Assembly: GCA_026397315.1 (NCBI GenBank)
Contig: JAPLVC010000001.1
Span: forward strand, 96,001-160,000
Length of the DNA: 64,000 nt
Direction of reading: 5' to 3'
DNA from: Candidatus Aenigmatarchaeota archaeon
GTDB lineage: Archaea > Aenigmatarchaeota > Aenigmatarchaeia > QMZP01 > QMZT01
Part shown: one piece after another, positions 7,287-59,031 of the stretch
Position numbering within the stretch: the stretch's first letter is position 1
Layout of the letters: each line of letters opens with the position of its first letter
Program-made: the position numbers and the translations under genes
Notes under the pieces: model-generated
What the model was told of the DNA's origin: nothing
Database searches by the model: none
Seen by the model: only the letters and a program-made list of their open reading frames with translations

Positions 7287-8489
7287 TCAGAAATCCCCTA
7301 GTCGCCGCTGTTTCAGGATGATGCTCTTCTTGACGTATTCTGCGACCGGCGTTCTCAGCCGCGGGCCGATGTAGGCCAGCGCTTCGCGGAGCGTCGCGAA
7401 CTTCGCCGGCTTCTGGCGGAGCGCGTTCCTCGTGTTTTCCAGACACTGCCACACGCCGACAGGGATGGTATAGCCTTCATGTATTTCGCGGAAGATGACA
7501 CAGCGCGCTTGCCGCCGCATTTTCTCGAGACCTTCGGCGAGGCCCAGTCGATTCGCATAGAACCCGCCGCCCTGTTCGCTGGCATATGTGGTGCGGCCTT
7601 TGTGGGGCTCGTATTCCTGGGTTATCTCGGGCGCTTTAAGACTCTGCGCCCAGTACGCGCCCGGAGACCAGCACTCGAAATTCTCGTATTCCCAGTTGCC
7701 GGGCATGAGCAGTATCTCGTAATGGTTGTCCAAGTATTCGCTGGAATAGACATGGTAATCGTTTATCGACGGGTAATCCTTGATGTTGCTGATGAGCTGG
7801 TTGGCAAGCATCGTATGCGTGGCTGTTATGCTCCAGCGCGTCGGCACCAGTTTCCGCCGGTCTTTCATTCCAAAGATGCCTGACGAGAGGATTGTTATGA
7901 GCTTGTATATGTCCGTGCCATGCGTGTAAAGCTCGTAGCTGGCTTCGACTGTCTTCATTTCATCGTTGATGATTTTCTCGACTTTCTGCGGCACCTTGGG
8001 GTTGCCAACGACCTTGAACTTGTCTATCGTCCCGGAAGGGCCCATGGGATGGGTGATGTCCGAGAACTCGAAGGACATCTTGGGCACGTTCTTGAACAGT
8101 ATTTCGACATCCGTCGGCTTCGATGCGAGAGCGAGCTCCTGGTTCTGCTCTATGAAGCGCGAGCGGGAGAAGACGTTTTCCCTGAACTGTGACCTGAGGA
8201 GCAGCGAGCGGAACTGGATTATGTCGCCATATGGCATGCCGAACCAGTTCTGGGGGGCGTCGGCAATCTCGGCCTTGCTCGCATCTAACGCGGCCATGGG
8301 CCCTACATACACGTCCGGGTAGAAATTATGGCCGACAAACACGGATGTGCTCGGACCGAAGAAGTCCTTCTTGAGCGAGGACTGGATTTGAGGAGCTAGC
8401 TTAATCTTGGAATATAACGGGCACGTGCGCCAGCCGCAGAGGTTGCGCGAGCCCTTGCACACGATGCATAGCCTGGCCGGAGAAGTCAT
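7287..8489 (-). CDS. nreA: Nre family archaeal DNA repair protein
   Basis: N-terminal CxxCKG..LCG..CP, RRKLVPTRWSITA, IPVGVWQ, C-terminal PIP box QRRLGDF. Confidence 0.93.
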   Translation of the reverse strand: MTSPARLCIVCKGSRNLCGWRTCPLYSKIKLAPQIQSSLKKDFFGPSTSVFVGHNFYPDVYVGPMAALDASKAEIADAPQNWFGMPYGDIIQFRSLLLRSQFRENVFSRSRFIEQNQELALASKPTDVEILFKNVPKMSFEFSDITHPMGPSGTIDKFKVVGNPKVPQKVEKIINDEMKTVEASYELYTHGTDIYKLITILSSGIFGMKDRRKLVPTRWSITATHTMLANQLISNIKDYPSINDYHVYSSEYLDNHYEILLMPGNWEYENFECWSPGAYWAQSLKAPEITQEYEPHKGRTTYASEQGGGFYANRLGLAEGLEKMRRQARCVIFREIHEGYTIPVGVWQCLENTRNALRQKPAKFATLREALAYIGPRLRTPVAEYVKKSIILKQRRLGDF

Positions 8490-8757
8490 ATGATTAATTA
8501 ATATAGTAAAAATTATAAGGCTTTCCGCCTCTCAAAAGGCCGTTTGTGCTGTCTGGATTGCTGCTCGGGCGCCTTATACTTAGAATAGGAAAAATAGGCA
8601 ACTTTAAATTGGAATAAAAAGGATTTATATGTATAACGGTCATATATAAGATTCTTTAAACGGTCCCGCAAAACACCACAAGCGGCCGGCAAAGCCATCC
8701 ATAATGTCGAATGATGTTCAAAAAGTCCTGACACGGACTGAAAAGAGGTATATGCTT

Positions 8758-9093
8758 ATGGAAAAGGACAAAAATATAGACGTATTGGAAGAAATCAAAA
8801 CCGCTGAAAAGGAAGCCAACAGGACGCTCGAGAAAGCACAGGAGCGCAAGAGCGAGATAATTCTTGAGATGCACAACAAGGCAAGGCAGATGGAAGAAAG
8901 AGAGATGGCCAGGATAAAGAGAGAGATGGAAGAGGCGATAAAGAGTTTTGATGCCAAGGCCGACAAGGACAGGGAACGTCTTCTGGCAGACAAGAAAAGC
9001 GAGACTGAGAGGCTCAAGAAATCCGCATCTTCCAAGGTCAGCAAGGCCGTGGAGAACATTAAGAAGGAATTAAACGCCTTCTTGGGAGAGTGA
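8758..9093 (+). CDS. atpH: A/V-type ATP synthase subunit H (peripheral stalk)
   Basis: Charged coiled coil (VLEEIKTAEKEA); first gene of the operon; SD GAGGT; start could also be 8752. Confidence 0.8.
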   Translation: MEKDKNIDVLEEIKTAEKEANRTLEKAQERKSEIILEMHNKARQMEEREMARIKREMEEAIKSFDAKADKDRERLLADKKSETERLKKSASSKVSKAVENIKKELNAFLGE

Positions 9094-10943
9094 AACTGAT
9101 GTTTTTTCCCAATGAGATGAAAAGGATAACGGTAGTTTCCCATAAAATACACCTCCAGGAAGCCGTAAAAGCGCTTTACGACGCCGGCGTCCTGCATCTC
9201 AAGGAATACGTGCCCAGCGAGGGCGATCACTACCCCATAGGAACGCCTATGGAGAACGCGGAGAAAATATCCGAGCTGCTGCTGATGCTCAATTCCATAA
9301 AGACCCAGGTCGACCTGAAAGCCGTGACGAAAACGAAAGCGGAGTTTGACCTGGAAAGGCATGAGAATTTACTCAGAAACTTCCAGGCCGATGTCAACAG
9401 GATCAACGAGGGCATAAAGCAGGCAGAAGATGCGCTGAAAGCCGGCGAGAGGCGCAGGGAAATACTCGAATTCCATTTGAAAGCGGGCGTGCAGAAATTC
9501 GATGCGCTGAAAGGCTACGACTCCCTGGACGTCCTGAACGGCTACGTGCCCGACATCGACGTGCTGAAAGTGAGGATGGCCAACGTGGAGCACGAACTCA
9601 TGGCAGGTGTGGAGAAGATGGCCGGCGGCTTCCCCGTAATAATTTTCGTCAAGAAAAGCGACATGGAAACGGCAAGACATGCGCTAGCGTCGGCGGAGTT
9701 CACCAGAGTCGACGTGGACATGGACTGGAGAACTGCAACGCCTCAGGAGGAGAGCGCCATTTTCACCAAGGAAAGGAATGCCCTGGTGAAGAAGGCTGAC
9801 GACCTCAGGAAAGAGCTGGCCGACTTGACGAAGGCGAAGGGCGGGGAGATTCTGGGAACGGAAGACGCCCTCACGACTGAGATACGCAAGTCGGAAGCGC
9901 CTCTCAAGTTCGCGGTAAGCAATCACAGCTTCATGATCCAGGGATGGGTTCCGAAAGGCAAGGAGTCCAGTCTGGAACAGAAGCTCGCGTCCATAACGGA
10001 CAACATGTATTTCTCCGCGGAGGACGTGGGCGAGGACGAGCCGGCTCCGATACAGCTCAAGAACAAGGGCCCGGTCAAGCCGTTCGAGTTCTTCCTGCGT
10101 TTGTATTCGCTTCCCAGCTACAAGGAAATGGACCCGACCTTTCTCATTTTCCTCACTTACCCCATCATCTTCGGCATAATGATGGGAGACATAGGCTACG
10201 GCCTGGTGCTGTTCCTGGGATTCGCGTTCATCAAATACAAGATGAAGAAGATGCGCTCTGTCGCTTCGGTGCTCATGATTTCATCGCTGTTCAGCATACT
10301 GTTCGGCTTCGTATTTGGAGAATTTTTCGGCTTCGAGGCGATAGGCGGGATAACGCTCCACCCGATGATAGCAAGGGCAGAAGGCCTGAACGCCATGCTG
10401 CCCGTATCCCTCATGATAGGCCTGGTGCACCTGAACTTGGGCATCACGACCGGCCTGATAAACGAGCTGCGCGAGCACAAGCTCAGGCATGCCATGGGCA
10501 AGGCCAGCTGGTTCATACTGGAGGCGGGCGGCATACTCTACCTGATGTCGACATTCTTGAAGATGGAGACCGGAGTCGACCCGAACCTTAGCCTCGGCAT
10601 ATTCCTTGTAGGAGTTGTTTTGTTAACCATAGGCGAGAGCTACCGCGGGCTGATAGAGATTCCAGCGCTCGCCAGCAACGTGCTTTCATACGCTCGTATA
10701 GCGGCGCTAGGGCTTGCCGGCGTGCAGCTGGCGCTGGTCATAAACGGCATGGCGGATGGCATGTTTCATGCGGGGGGAATGTTCATGGTGATGGGGGTCG
10801 CGCTGCTCTTCGCAGGCCATGCGGTGAACATGCTGCTGGCGCTCATGGGCTCGTTCCTGCAGTCGCTCAGGCTCCACTACGTGGAGATGTTTTCAAAGTT
10901 TTATCATGGTGACGGTGAACCTTACAAGCCGTTCGGAAGTTAA
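9090..10943 (+). CDS. atpI: A/V-type ATP synthase subunit I (a)
   Basis: EMDPT, FGIMMGDIGYG, SNVLSYARI, LRLHYVEMFSKFY; start may be ATG 9099. Confidence 0.96.
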   Translation: MKLMFFPNEMKRITVVSHKIHLQEAVKALYDAGVLHLKEYVPSEGDHYPIGTPMENAEKISELLLMLNSIKTQVDLKAVTKTKAEFDLERHENLLRNFQADVNRINEGIKQAEDALKAGERRREILEFHLKAGVQKFDALKGYDSLDVLNGYVPDIDVLKVRMANVEHELMAGVEKMAGGFPVIIFVKKSDMETARHALASAEFTRVDVDMDWRTATPQEESAIFTKERNALVKKADDLRKELADLTKAKGGEILGTEDALTTEIRKSEAPLKFAVSNHSFMIQGWVPKGKESSLEQKLASITDNMYFSAEDVGEDEPAPIQLKNKGPVKPFEFFLRLYSLPSYKEMDPTFLIFLTYPIIFGIMMGDIGYGLVLFLGFAFIKYKMKKMRSVASVLMISSLFSILFGFVFGEFFGFEAIGGITLHPMIARAEGLNAMLPVSLMIGLVHLNLGITTGLINELREHKLRHAMGKASWFILEAGGILYLMSTFLKMETGVDPNLSLGIFLVGVVLLTIGESYRGLIEIPALASNVLSYARIAALGLAGVQLALVINGMADGMFHAGGMFMVMGVALLFAGHAVNMLLALMGSFLQSLRLHYVEMFSKFYHGDGEPYKPFGS

Positions 10944-10958
10944 AATGGAGGTGTGAAT

Positions 10959-11180
10959 ATGTCTGATATAGCAGTAATCGCAGCAGCAGCGACGATATGC
11001 ATAAGTGCGATAGCGACGGCGTGGGCTGAAAAAGAGCTGGGAACGTCGGCGATAGGCGCCATGGCGGAGAAGGAAAGCCTTTTCGCCAAGGGTCTTATCA
11101 TTACGGTCATCCCGGAAACCATAATCATTTTCGGCCTGGTCGTGGCGTTGCAGATAATCGGCATGGCCGGAGGCGCGTAA
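10959..11180 (+). CDS. atpK: A-type ATP synthase subunit K (c), single hairpin
   Basis: Two TM helices, AEKELG...IPETIIIFG with the ion-binding Glu; SD GGAGGTG. Confidence 0.95.
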   Translation: MSDIAVIAAAATICISAIATAWAEKELGTSAIGAMAEKESLFAKGLIITVIPETIIIFGLVVALQIIGMAGGA

Positions 11181-52143: not shown

Positions 52144-52247
52144 GTCCCGGTAGCTCAGCTGGCAGAGCGTTCGGCTGTTAACCGAAAGGTCGCACATGAG
52201 CTGGGGAACCATCTCGTGGACTAAAGGTTCGAATCCTGCCCGGGACG
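52144..52247 (+). tRNA. tRNA-Asn(GTT) with 31-nt intron in the T-stem (50/51; 52194-52224)
   Basis: Acceptor GTCCCGG/CCGGGAC; anticodon arm TTCGG-CTGTTAA-CCGAA; splicing restores GCAGG-TTCGAAT-CCTGC; BHB-like GGTC/GACT helix with GCA and AAA bulges. Confidence 0.93.
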
Positions 52248-52730: not shown

Positions 52731-53513
52731 ATGGGCTCTATTGTCACCTTAAATGATGTACTGAAAATCTACAAATCACAAAAAGCAGGCGAGATAGCTC
52801 TGAAGCCTTACAATAAATGGTTTCCTTTAAAGCCCTCACCGGAGCTAGCAGGCGTAGTTGCAGATTTGATATGTGACGGTCATCTTCAGGGCAATCCAAA
52901 ATGGAGAATAGATTTTACCTTCAAAATAAACGAAGAAAAGCTGAGATTCGAAAGGAAAATTGAAAAAATATTTGGTGTTAAAGGAAAAGCGAGGCCTTGT
53001 TATTCCAATATGTGGGGAGAAAGTTACAATTACGGTGTGAATTGCAAACCTCTGGCTAAAACTCTTTTTCTATGCGGAGTTCCCAGCGGCAACAAGGTGC
53101 TGGGAAATTTCGCTTTTCCTAAATGGATTCTTGAAAATAAAAATTATTTCAAAGAATTCACGAAAAGATTTTATAATTGCGAGGGCACTTGCTGGGGAGG
53201 TAAAAGCCCGGGCATAGGCTTTGAGATGTGGAAAGAAACTGGTAAAATCGACAATTTAAAAGAATTTCTGGAAGTCATAAGATGTGGCCTGAAAAAATTT
53301 TTCGATATAAAAACGACGGAAATTTTCACGACAAGTTCCGTGCATAACAGAAAGGATGGCTATGTGACAAGGCCTCTGAGGTTTTATATAAAAAGAAAAG
53401 AGTCTATATTTAAATTCTATAGAGATATAGGATTTGAATACGAAAAACAAAATAAATTGAAAAACATAATAGAAAATTGGGGCAGAACCTCTGTGGGAAC
53501 TGAAGTGCCATAA
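52731..53513 (+). mobile_element. free-standing two-motif LAGLIDADG homing endonuclease-like gene
   Basis: LAGVVADLICDG and FTKRFYNCEG helices, GVPSGNK..FPKWI, FYRDIGF; AT-rich; no intein splicing motifs. Confidence 0.85.
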
Positions 53514-53620
53514 CAGTAGCTCAGCCCGGGAGAGCGCTCGTATGTAGCGGGAATAATGAATCCCGCTTCATGGCGAAGCTGAAGACCGATAGGTCGTGGG
53601 TTCAAATCCCACCTGTCCCA
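53495..53620 (+). tRNA. tRNA-Phe(GAA) with two BHB introns: 4/5 (53499-53513) and 30/31 (53541-53577)
   Basis: Splicing gives GGGACAG/CTGTCCC acceptor, GCTC/GAGC D-stem, CTCGG-CTGAAGA-CCGAT anticodon arm and GTGGG-TTCAAAT-CCCAC T-arm; BHBs GTGG/CCAT (bulges GAA, AAC) and CGCT/GGCG (bulges CGT, AAG). Confidence 0.9.
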
Positions 53621-56913: not shown

Positions 56914-58659
56914 TTAATTTTTCTTATTTTTTATAATATTGCTAGTCTTGTAATCGCCCAGTTTTTCCCTGATTCTCACAATTTTACACACAATGCCATC
57001 TTCAGCCAGAAGCTTCGCTAGCGCTTTCTCGTCAGCCTTCTGGTCATGGCCCAGCGCTATGATATCCGGCATAGCCCACATTATCGTTTTTAAATAACTG
57101 CTTTCTTCTTTGCCCAAAAATGCACCGTCAACATAAGATATTTCTTCCATGACGGCCAATCGTTGCTTTTCCTCGTTAATAGGTAATCTTCCCTTAAAAT
57201 TTTTTGCAGTTTGATCTCTGGCTATTATGACTATCAACAAATCTCCCAATAATTTGGCGGATTTAAGCAAATGTAAATGTCCTGGATGTACTATATCAAA
57301 AACTCCTCCAGTAAGAACAACCTTGAATTTCATCCTACCTTTCTCATTTAGTGAATATTTTCCTGGGAGAAAACCAATTAATGACGATCTTCCTCGACTG
57401 CCTAAAAAAACTCTATCGCTCATCTTATTTACAAGACCTTCACGTAGGAGTTTGCTAACTATCCTTGCCGTTCTAGTATATGTTCTTTGACATTTTAAAG
57501 ATAATTCGGGTATTGTGAAAAAACCATATCTGAGTTCTAAAAGGTATGCTTTTTTTAAAAATTCAACAGAAGCTTTACTGTTAGGAAATTGATATTGTTG
57601 ATAGGAAGATAAAGCAACTTTTAATTTTTCCTTTTTATATTTCAAATCAGAACCAATTTTGGTTTCAAATTTAATAAGCTCACTTCTGTTGTCTATGTTT
57701 ATTTGCCAAACGCTAGAATCTGATTTGATTCCTTTGAACTTGGGTCCCACATATTCTATTCCGACTTTATCCAAAAGTTTGCAATCGCCCAACAGCAGAG
57801 GGGGTGGGGTTTTTTTGTCCCTGTTTACCAATCTTAATACAATTGACCGATGTTTCTTTTTTTGATTAAAATAAACAGAACCATCATCGTCAAAACATCT
57901 TCTAATAAAAGTCGTCAAAAATTTTTCATCGTTACCGAAAACAAAATTCGGAATATTCTGTTTATGTTTTTTCAAGTCCCTTTTAAACAAGCAAAGTGTT
58001 ACTAATGCAATAATCGCAGGTAATTTTATTGTATGGTTTGTTAAACTTTTATTCCAACCACCTTTAGGTTCTTCGATTTGACCAAAAATATTAAAAGCAG
58101 CATCCAAGAAGCTTTTTCTCATTAGAAATGCCTCTTTTTCATCACTTGCTTTTTTCTTCGTGTAGGCTGTGAAATTTTCATTTAAAAAGCCATCATGCAT
58201 GATTGAAGAGATATATAGAGCGCCATTATTTGTATTGAAATTGAAAGGTAGTTTGGGATTCAAAATGCTTTTCCTATAAGTTCCTTTGGGTGTTGTTAAT
58301 TCAAGAATATCTTGGTTCTTGATCAATTTAAAATTGTTAATATAATAAAGTATTTTTATCAAAAGAGACAATTTAATAAACTTTCCTTTATCTAGATTGT
58401 ATAAGGCAGGGCAGTATCTTTGTCTTATCTTCTCTCCCAAAAACCTGCCAAACTCTGTCAGATTTTTAAAACCTCCCGTTTTTAAGGATAGAAAAATTAG
58501 CTCACGCCCCTTTTTTTCTGTTAATCTTAAGCTGGTTGAAGGGTGCAAATTCCACAAAAATACAATTCCGGTATTTGGTGGTTTATTGAAAAAATCTTGA
58601 GATAACAATTTTTCATTGAAATTCTCAAACGCTTCTTTTAAAAAATCAATTTCAACCAT
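56914..58659 (-). CDS. ribL: LAGLIDADG + wHTH protein fused in frame to FAD synthase RibL
   Basis: YISSIMHDG and FIRRCFDDDG helices; C-terminal 139 aa (ATG 57333) with GGVFDIVHPGH, ARD, PDIIALGHDQ, KTSNI. Confidence 0.85.
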   Translation of the reverse strand: MVEIDFLKEAFENFNEKLLSQDFFNKPPNTGIVFLWNLHPSTSLRLTEKKGRELIFLSLKTGGFKNLTEFGRFLGEKIRQRYCPALYNLDKGKFIKLSLLIKILYYINNFKLIKNQDILELTTPKGTYRKSILNPKLPFNFNTNNGALYISSIMHDGFLNENFTAYTKKKASDEKEAFLMRKSFLDAAFNIFGQIEEPKGGWNKSLTNHTIKLPAIIALVTLCLFKRDLKKHKQNIPNFVFGNDEKFLTTFIRRCFDDDGSVYFNQKKKHRSIVLRLVNRDKKTPPPLLLGDCKLLDKVGIEYVGPKFKGIKSDSSVWQINIDNRSELIKFETKIGSDLKYKKEKLKVALSSYQQYQFPNSKASVEFLKKAYLLELRYGFFTIPELSLKCQRTYTRTARIVSKLLREGLVNKMSDRVFLGSRGRSSLIGFLPGKYSLNEKGRMKFKVVLTGGVFDIVHPGHLHLLKSAKLLGDLLIVIIARDQTAKNFKGRLPINEEKQRLAVMEEISYVDGAFLGKEESSYLKTIMWAMPDIIALGHDQKADEKALAKLLAEDGIVCKIVRIREKLGDYKTSNIIKNKKN

Positions 58660-58742
58660 ATATAATATTATATTGAATTTAGATATTTAAAACTTGGCAA
58701 GCAAATATTATCAAGTAATAATTTATAATGGTGGTAGATGAG

Positions 58743-58919
58743 TTACTTCTTAAGGCTCATCGCATCGACGGGGCAGAAGTTCACGCAGGCAGCGCAGTTC
58801 ACGCATCTCTTCGCGTCGCATTCTATGCCGTGCTCAGTGAGGTCCAGCGCGAGCTTCGGGCAGACCGCCACGCATCCGCCGCATCGAAGGCACTTGTTCT
58901 TGTCCGTTAACGCAACCAT
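58743..58919 (-). CDS. 2[4Fe-4S] ferredoxin
   Basis: CLRCGGCVAVCP and CVNCAACVNFCP. Confidence 0.95.
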   Translation of the reverse strand: MVALTDKNKCLRCGGCVAVCPKLALDLTEHGIECDAKRCVNCAACVNFCPVDAMSLKK

Positions 58920-59031
58920 AAACATCACCCATTTAGACAGAAGCAGATGCAATCTGCTTCATTCGCTTAATAGGTTATTTTTTAAACTGCGAGCTTAAAT
59001 ATTTGAAATAACCAGTGCAAAAGGTGACGTC

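Follow-up and report, generated by a model that had tools for sequence, protein, structure and literature searches.

A LAGLIDADG endonuclease-type module fused in frame to a mosaic ribL gene in an aenigmatarchaeal genome

Homing endonucleases are thought to persist in essential genes under the cover of self-splicing introns or inteins. In fungal mitochondria, mobile open reading frames (mORFs; Allomyces macrogynus atp6, and atp6, atp9, cox2 and nad3 of Glomus sp.) bring a foreign gene end with them on insertion, and the hybrids that result are expressed, one of them being in phase and free of a stop codon (PMC3630166), and in T4-like phages the free-standing homing endonucleases seg and mob co-convert flanking markers by 'intronless homing' (PMC2988022). 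Our literature search found the splicing-free gene hybrid for fungal mitochondria only and no paper on archaeal chromosomes; full-text literature combining LAGLIDADG with DPANN or DPANN phylum names held no paper on such elements. Here we describe a locus in a 64,000-nucleotide (nt) stretch of contig JAPLVC010000001.1 of a Candidatus Aenigmatarchaeota archaeon (this whole stretch is called the window), in which an AT-rich LAGLIDADG endonuclease-type module reads in frame into ribL, the gene of a predicted flavin adenine dinucleotide (FAD) synthase. Like mORFs, the ribL element is a LAGLIDADG open reading frame (ORF; LAGLIDADG or GIY-YIG in mORFs) without an intron or intein that entered a conserved gene with a foreign gene end, and the inserted end is phylogenetically foreign while the rest of the gene matches the sister taxon. 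It differs from mORFs in that it resides in an archaeal chromosome, that the 5' end of the target was replaced and not the 3' end, so that the endonuclease is N-terminal, that no displaced native end is stranded at ribL, and that the fusion recurs in three lineages. We consider it probable that a LAGLIDADG homing-endonuclease element of the free-standing type arrived by gene conversion together with a 5' piece of a donor ribL and became fused in frame to the N-terminus of its target.

The fused gene is a single open frame of 581 codons on the minus strand (56914..58659, stop codon included; protein P0001), located in a 1.05-Mb, 91%-complete assembly (G000). A random frame at a GC content of ~0.32 would hit a stop about every 13 codons, so an ORF of this length is not a product of chance. 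From its N-terminus P0001 comprises a helix-turn-helix (HTH)-like domain, a two-motif LAGLIDADG core, a winged helix and RibL with no stop in between, which bears out what an earlier note on this DNA, made from the letters alone, had read: an AT-rich, two-motif LAGLIDADG and winged helix-turn-helix (wHTH) sequence running without a stop into RibL. Pfam detected CTP_transf_like (PF01467) at residues 449-577 (E 8e-19) and, weakly, LAGLIDADG_3 at residues 249-336 (E 0.055; 14.2 bits, cut-off 22.5). The RibL-type domain has HPGH (HxGH motif), its closest solved structure is 3GLV (E 1e-31, whole domain covered), and it is orthologous by synteny to the 137-amino-acid (aa) ribL product of G003, a genome of the same genus. 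The name RibL rests on homology and synteny, since no RibL-specific NCBIfam model scored above its cut-off for P0001. Two further PF01467 genes of G000 are NMNAT-like and PPAT-like, and no second RibL-type gene was found among the PF01467 genes examined in this 91%-complete genome. As the only RibL-type gene found, the 581-aa fusion presumably supplies the FAD synthase (flavin mononucleotide adenylyltransferase) activity.

Composition and DNA alignment with the G003 locus (L003) delimit a foreign AT-rich segment of ~1.67 kb (57070..58742), which stands in place of ~86 codons at the native ribL start and of the native spacer between ferredoxin and ribL. Most of the fused gene has a GC content of 0.26-0.38 and the flanks 0.50-0.59; at third codon positions (GC3) the AT-rich part shows 0.10-0.40 and six neighbouring host genes 0.65-0.74, and in the same-genus locus comparison the segment has a GC content of ~0.32 versus ~0.53. 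The ferredoxin-ribL allele lacking the insert that the earlier note had proposed to seek among relatives exists in G003, with the order TFB-aIF5A-ribL-ferredoxin-mevalonate kinase and ribL starting 24 nt past the ferredoxin stop. The order mevalonate kinase-ferredoxin-ribL-aIF5A is kept in the genus and the family, with ribL products of 130-155 aa. Searches of the other four genus genomes (84-90% complete) and of 40 related genomes of the order did not turn up the insert; the ferredoxin-ribL site is empty in G001-G004 and other family members and occupied in G000 only among 41 genomes, an occupied-versus-empty polymorphism at a defined site of the kind that marks homing endonucleases.

In the alignment of G000 with L003 the left junction lies directly past the ferredoxin stop codon (58743-58745) and the right junction within ribL at 57069/57070 (codon 530/531), at the conserved PDIIALGHDQ. 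Both junctions are sharp and coincide with the GC3 shift, and beyond them the two genomes are ~93-97% identical (protein identities: aIF5A 96%, ferredoxin 96.7%, mevalonate kinase 93.5%). Between the ferredoxin stop and the element this alignment shows no remnant of the native spacer or of the original ribL start. The native 2x[4Fe-4S] ferredoxin gene, whose stop codon forms the left junction (58743..58952, minus strand; Pfam Fer4 families), a GHMP-family (mevalonate) kinase, aIF5A and TFB were recognized near the fusion with Pfam. Terminal repeats and a target-site duplication were not found at the insert, just short AT-rich chance repeats, and Pfam showed no transposase domain in P0001; a transposon or insertion sequence is thereby ruled out.

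The ribL gene itself is a hybrid whose two parts are phylogenetically incongruent. Its foreign part (residues 443-530; 57070..57333, minus strand), which contains the HPGH nucleotidyltransferase motif, makes up 88 of the 139 RibL codons, i.e., about two thirds of the gene and not the first third, as alignment and GC3 show against the earlier estimate. It has 39.5% aa identity to G003, where G003 and other kin in the genus and family are 65-71% identical over the same region. The native 3' third (residues 531-581 plus stop; 56914..57069, minus strand) begins at PDIIALGHDQ and shows 90% aa identity to G003. In separate trees, which had been suggested for the two ends of ribL, G003 is the sister of residues 531-581 (support 98/99), and residues 443-530 cluster with RibLs of fused and wHTH-fused genes (94/87); forcing residues 443-530 into their own genus was rejected (approximately unbiased test, p-AU 0.03), as was forcing residues 531-581 into the fused type (p-AU 0.016). 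Together with the divergence from G003 that runs from the ferredoxin stop to codon 530, the incongruent trees uphold the claim that a 5' ribL piece came with the element; among the 41 genomes the fusion occurs in G000 only. The piece is a diverged foreign homologue, with no synonymous rewrite as the term 'recoded' had implied.

This extent of the foreign tract also bears on how RibL is translated. The methionine taken for RibL's own start (Met443, 57333) does exist, but it falls within the foreign segment, is not the native start, and is R, K or L at the same position in P0031, P0045 and G035 (fused or wHTH-RibL relatives); the supposed Shine-Dalgarno-like signal, AAGGTAGG, encodes a KGR motif that is kept in the fused and most wHTH-RibL relatives. 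A conserved internal start for a short RibL at Met443 is thus not supported. It is likewise doubtful that the element captures host expression, because it carries an 83-nt leader (58660..58742, minus strand) without a counterpart in G003, and it has parted ribL from the ferredoxin gene that lies immediately upstream in G003. A TATA-like TTTAAATA at 58684-58691, ~28 nt before the ATG, suggests that the leader, as read from the sequence, may serve as the element's own promoter and yield a leaderless mRNA.

Judging from alignment and a structural model, the N-terminal module is a LAGLIDADG endonuclease-type protein with a predicted nuclease activity. All its parts lie on the minus strand: a helical HTH-like domain at about residues 30-110 (58330..58572; model secondary structure, and HTH_3/HTH_26 matches of the relative P0059 in the equivalent region), the helix of LAGLIDADG motif 1 at residues 144-159 (58183..58230; ...YISSIMHDGFL), the helix of motif 2 at residues 245-262 (57874..57927; ...FIRRCFDDDGSV), both placed by alignment and model, and a winged-helix domain with wing/linker at about residues 362-441 (57337..57576; alignment, model and profile). 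The acidic residues of both motifs are present, D156 in IMHDG and D259 in FDDDGS. The winged helix has homologues both in free-standing family members, as their C-terminal wHTH, and in wHTH-RibL proteins, as their N-extension; the fused relative P0045 gives weak TrmB-type wHTH matches in this region. The first homologues found were three stand-alone proteins of 388-422 aa, which align with residues 1-445 of P0001 and carry the motifs ...ISAILHDGGI and ...QAFDDDGSV. An AlphaFold model of the module built on this alignment (predicted local distance difference test, pLDDT, 75; predicted template modelling score, pTM, 0.68) matched TliVMA (E 4e-7), PI-PkoII, PI-SceI and I-Tsp061I in a Foldseek search of the PDB, all with probability 1.00, and further PI-PfuI and WhiA; TliVMA, PI-PkoII, PI-SceI and PI-PfuI are intein endonuclease domains and I-Tsp061I is an archaeal intron enzyme. 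The module thus has in common with PI-SceI, PI-PfuI, TliVMA, I-Tsp061I and I-DmoI the two-domain LAGLIDADG core and the catalytic acidic residues. Unlike these intein and archaeal-intron endonucleases, it has neither a Hint domain nor an intron, adds the N-terminal HTH-like and the C-terminal wHTH domains, and is permanently fused, with no splicing that would restore the host protein.

The fusion is not confined to G000. An exhaustive profile search recovered relatives that a first full-length search had missed: P0031 (558 aa, 37% identity, three samples) and P0045 (586 aa, 32% identity, two samples) have the same architecture from end to end and represent two other metagenomic lineages, which brings the fusion to three lineages. 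Independent assemblies of five samples gave the in-frame arrangement on five other contigs, and the linker and wing sequence over the domain boundary is conserved among the fused proteins. P0001, P0031, P0045 and the truncated P0050 form one clade in the endonuclease tree (96/93). In L026 the whole fused gene is AT-rich (GC 0.31 against 0.42 in the flanks). P0050 (ENA ERZ23498361, a 1591-bp contig) is the nearest relative of the P0001 nuclease module (38% identity) and shares its N-terminal MxExxFLKEAFxNF start; it ends at the YKKEK motif, another ORF begins 160 nt downstream, and it could be a split intermediate. There are also wHTH-RibL proteins without a nuclease core, of ~210-236 aa (G035, L004:1477-2163, minus strand; G007, L017 ~1482-2114; and P0160). 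The endonuclease-family profile aligns through its C-terminal part with the N-extension of the G035 protein (E 1.3e-7), and the RibL domains of these proteins are outliers in their own taxonomic families and cluster with the fused type. From their sequences, they may be either decay products of the full element or independent fusions of flavin-pathway regulators.

An exhaustive profile search for the nuclease family yields 1730 representatives at E<=1e-3, of which 158 reach E<=1e-30; the best 150 of the 1730 are mostly ~390-440 aa long. Among these best 150, the acidic position of motif 1 is D in 146/146 aligned representatives and that of motif 2 is D or E in 148/148, so that both catalytic positions are acidic in all 144 representatives covering both motifs. 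The LAGLIDADG_3 cut-off (22.5 bits) is passed by the relatives P0031 (31.3), P0015 (25.2) and P0020 (23.2). Members with a named source or readable context are mainly free-standing genes in assemblies labelled DPANN; of the 20 family loci in genome contigs, most belong to assemblies with the label Aenigmatarchaeota, Nanoarchaeota, Woesearchaeota or Micrarchaeota and five to assemblies labelled uncultured Methanosarcinales. These five (L040, L041, L044, L046 and L047, third-party annotation (TPA) bins titled 'uncultured Methanosarcinales') have endonucleases that cluster with Woesearchaeota ones, and their taxon labels may be unreliable. No RibL was found within 4 kb of the 20 free-standing members from genome contigs. 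The GC content is below that of the flanks in 12 of 13 family genes compared, and 8 of the 13 abut or overlap a co-oriented downstream gene, which is Nre in four loci (L031, L032, L035, L038) and LeuRS in three (L040, L041, L042). Other members lie past eIF6 (eIF6/FtsY: L036, L024) or between rpl24e and rps28e/rpl7ae (L022, L023, L033).

The endonuclease tree sorts by these neighbours (Nre 99/99, LeuRS 100/100, L24e/S28e 98/96, eIF6 99/98, RibL 96/93), and the Nre clade spans Aenigmatarchaeota and Micrarchaeota by the taxon labels of the records; the exception is L039, a member of the eIF6 clade with a different gene context. Clades that follow the neighbouring target gene suggest that the family behaves like target-specific homing endonucleases. 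The earlier note had postulated a family of endonuclease elements at the 5' edges of conserved genes, and the co-oriented genes at Nre and LeuRS and the sorting of the tree agree with this; the tRNA-Phe case it had brought in as a second example is a distant relative. At several loci low GC content continues for 100-250 nt within the downstream gene, which is no more than suggestive. Two further loci deserve mention. On the contig that carries P0003 (L022) a 480-aa ORF with a faint LAGLIDADG_3 match (7936-9378, minus strand) overlaps the 3' end of a Glu/Gln-tRNA synthetase gene (9332-10999), and the related contig L023 has the synthetase without that ORF. In a genome of the same family as G000 a member is broken by two TAA stops (G018:C26:3002-3700, L053) and is probably a decaying copy. 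This large LAGLIDADG-wHTH family in DPANN archaea is apparently undescribed.

G000 itself has a second member of the family on contig C4 (311 aa, without wHTH, hhalign probability 98.6%; L052:1525-2460, minus strand, where L052 is G000:C4:104992-108909). It lies in an AT-rich island of ~1.05 kb (~1400-2600 of L052) between a radical-SAM gene and a Sua5/YrdC gene; in G003 the insert is present, and in G004 the site is empty, with the two genes 33 nt apart. At its 3' end the radical-SAM gene carries an AT-rich replacement (...DIEKIKNTDLYRKTYEGFL, then stop), and a diverged duplicate of its last ~19 codons (...DIESIKKSEVYKKTYEGFV, then stop) is stranded past the endonuclease gene, so that the second element has exactly the layout of a fungal mORF, stranded native end included. 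The tRNA-Phe-associated endonuclease P0002, 3.5 kb from the ribL fusion, is only a distant LAGLIDADG relative, with an hhalign probability of 44%. It is a 260-aa AT-rich ORF, which NCBIfam matches best to an intein-containing RtcB, in the endonuclease portion (E 8.5e-11), and it runs into a 104-nt Rfam tRNA match (53513-53616), the two together spanning window 52731-53616. Rfam places a second tRNA of 104 nt at 52144-52247. Neither is called by ARAGORN, which reports no tRNA anywhere in the window and so misses the intron-bearing tRNA genes here.

How the ribL locus would have come about under the homing reading can be outlined as follows. The nuclease would cut element-free ribL alleles in or near their 5' part, and the break would be repaired from an element-bearing copy; with the repair, the donor's ribL flank would be copied in along with the endonuclease gene as a co-conversion tract. 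The resulting hybrid would consist of the element's own leader with its TATA-like box, the endonuclease module, foreign RibL 1-88 and native RibL 89-139, and its diverged foreign 5' piece would no longer hold the target site. RibL would then be made as the C-terminal part of a 66-kDa fusion, its translation depending on the element's start codon. A parallel for this route is offered by T4 seg and mob, whose genes also lie between or beside conserved genes and for which double-strand-break repair co-converts the donor flank; the same process would explain the mosaic target gene in the ribL case. In contrast to these enzymes (GIY-YIG or HNH, separately translated, acting in phage co-infections), the ribL element is a LAGLIDADG protein, fused to its target and placed in a cellular genome, and its cleavage is predicted.

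Several observations weigh against this reading. The left junction coincides precisely with the ferredoxin stop, and nothing of the native ribL start is left behind. Homologous repair on that side is unexplained, as the upstream neighbours of the known fused genes are unrelated: this holds for L026 and L029 and rules out ferredoxin as a shared upstream neighbour that could account for the left crossover. The protein collections yielded no close donor (>40% identity): a word-indexed search with the foreign wHTH and RibL part returned only the protein itself, a 236-aa wHTH-RibL and a 130-aa RibL. P0001 stays below the Pfam LAGLIDADG_3 cut-off (14.2 vs 22.5 bits) and deviates at two well-conserved positions of the family (N to K near 168/169, and G228 to D), so that the G000 copy of the nuclease could be inactive. 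The fusion has persisted over a deep divergence, which would also fit a selected bifunctional protein, and G000 is a metagenome assembly of 91% completeness.

The persistence leads to an explanation in which the LAGLIDADG-wHTH part is now only a DNA-binding or regulatory domain on an FAD synthase, and in which the gene came in through ordinary horizontal transfer with homologous recombination, no nuclease being involved. NadR and BirA are enzyme-regulator fusions of cofactor pathways in which, as in the archaeal RbkR, a winged helix stands N-terminal to the enzyme, and the wHTH-RibL proteins of G035, G007 and P0160 look alike. RbkR combines its wHTH with a riboflavin kinase (PMC5397151), and in WhiA/DUF199 a LAGLIDADG core tethered to a C-terminal HTH domain, as in the ribL module, has become a regulator with loss of the catalytic acidic residues (PMC3384342), which shows that such a protein can be a transcription factor. 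Also in favour of domestication are the retention of the fused architecture at 32-37% identity in three lineages, the existence of wHTH-RibL proteins without a nuclease core whose RibL domains group with the fused type, and motif 2 of P0045, which reads DDEAN in place of DDxGS. Nevertheless, we regard this explanation, the main rival, as rather unlikely. Domestication of the WhiA type loses the acidic residues, which P0001 and 144/144 family representatives keep, and a WhiA-like regulator is uniformly and vertically conserved, whereas the element is patchy among the 41 genomes and was not found in the four genus genomes and the other members of the order searched. The fused gene is strongly AT-rich against its host both in G000 and in L026; the sister clades are found beside unrelated housekeeping genes, a pattern that would not be accounted for by a riboflavin regulator; and RbkR, NadR and BirA have no nuclease core, while the wHTH of the ribL type, in the G035 extension, matches the endonuclease-family profile.

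The weak score and the two deviating positions of P0001 would suit a once-active homing endonuclease that is now an inert passenger, its fusion tolerated since the C-terminal RibL works. Degenerate relatives exist (G018:C26 with its two stops, P0050 truncated at the YKKEK motif), and the homing-endonuclease life cycle predicts decay following fixation (PMC13619312); however, no stop interrupts the 442 AT-rich codons, no domain is lost and both catalytic residues persist, and the strong contrast in composition with the host suggests a recent arrival, which makes decay improbable. An artefact, by chimeric assembly or by a missed stop or frameshift joining two separate genes, might be suspected because G000 is metagenome-assembled and the exact P0001 protein was found on one contig only. 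To produce a chimera, though, two separate joins would have had to lead back to one and the same host locus, and the recurrence of the in-frame architecture in the five other contigs, with the domain boundary conserved, leaves this very improbable. Hardly any weight falls on a non-canonical intein or a self-cleaving N-terminal domain that would free RibL, even if the closest fold matches (TliVMA, PI-PkoII, PI-SceI, PI-PfuI) are intein endonuclease domains. Those matches cover the endonuclease core only, Pfam detected no Hint or intein family in P0001 even at E<=1, the modelled N-terminal third is mostly helical with few short strands and not a beta-rich Hint fold, the protein begins with the element and hence lacks an N-extein, and the element-RibL junction shows no HN|C/S/T. 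The intein reading is rejected, and the earlier note was right that neither a Hint block nor such a junction is visible. On the whole, the observation that it had made at this locus is confirmed with two corrections, on the extent of the foreign ribL and on the meaning of Met443 and the 'SD' signal; its interpretation as a mobile element is largely supported, and its account taken together partly so.

What is new against the known systems is that the element is translationally fused to the N-terminus of its target enzyme, that this fusion recurs in three lineages and that the replacement is complete and leaves no relic. The locus is a clean natural experiment, with occupied and empty alleles in two genomes of one genus, junctions mapped within a few bases and a foreign tract that ends in a conserved motif of the target. 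Since the clades of the family track specific housekeeping genes, they are a ready source of new natural meganuclease specificities, and hybrids such as this ribL can mislead single-gene phylogenies and the annotation of small archaeal genomes. Tentatively, and with considerable doubt, the in-frame fusion may be seen as a strategy of persistence, in which the start and promoter context of the target are replaced and the endonuclease turns into the N-terminal part of the cell's only FAD synthase, and the wHTH-RibL proteins would be decay products that deleted the nuclease core, kept the winged helix and possibly became flavin-responsive regulators. If so, the endonuclease gene could not be lost or silenced without losing an essential enzyme, the fusion would be a splicing-free alternative to inteins, and a route from selfish nuclease to enzyme-regulator fusion would be visible. 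A permanent fusion of nuclease and enzyme raises the question whether a selfish gene can become indispensable.

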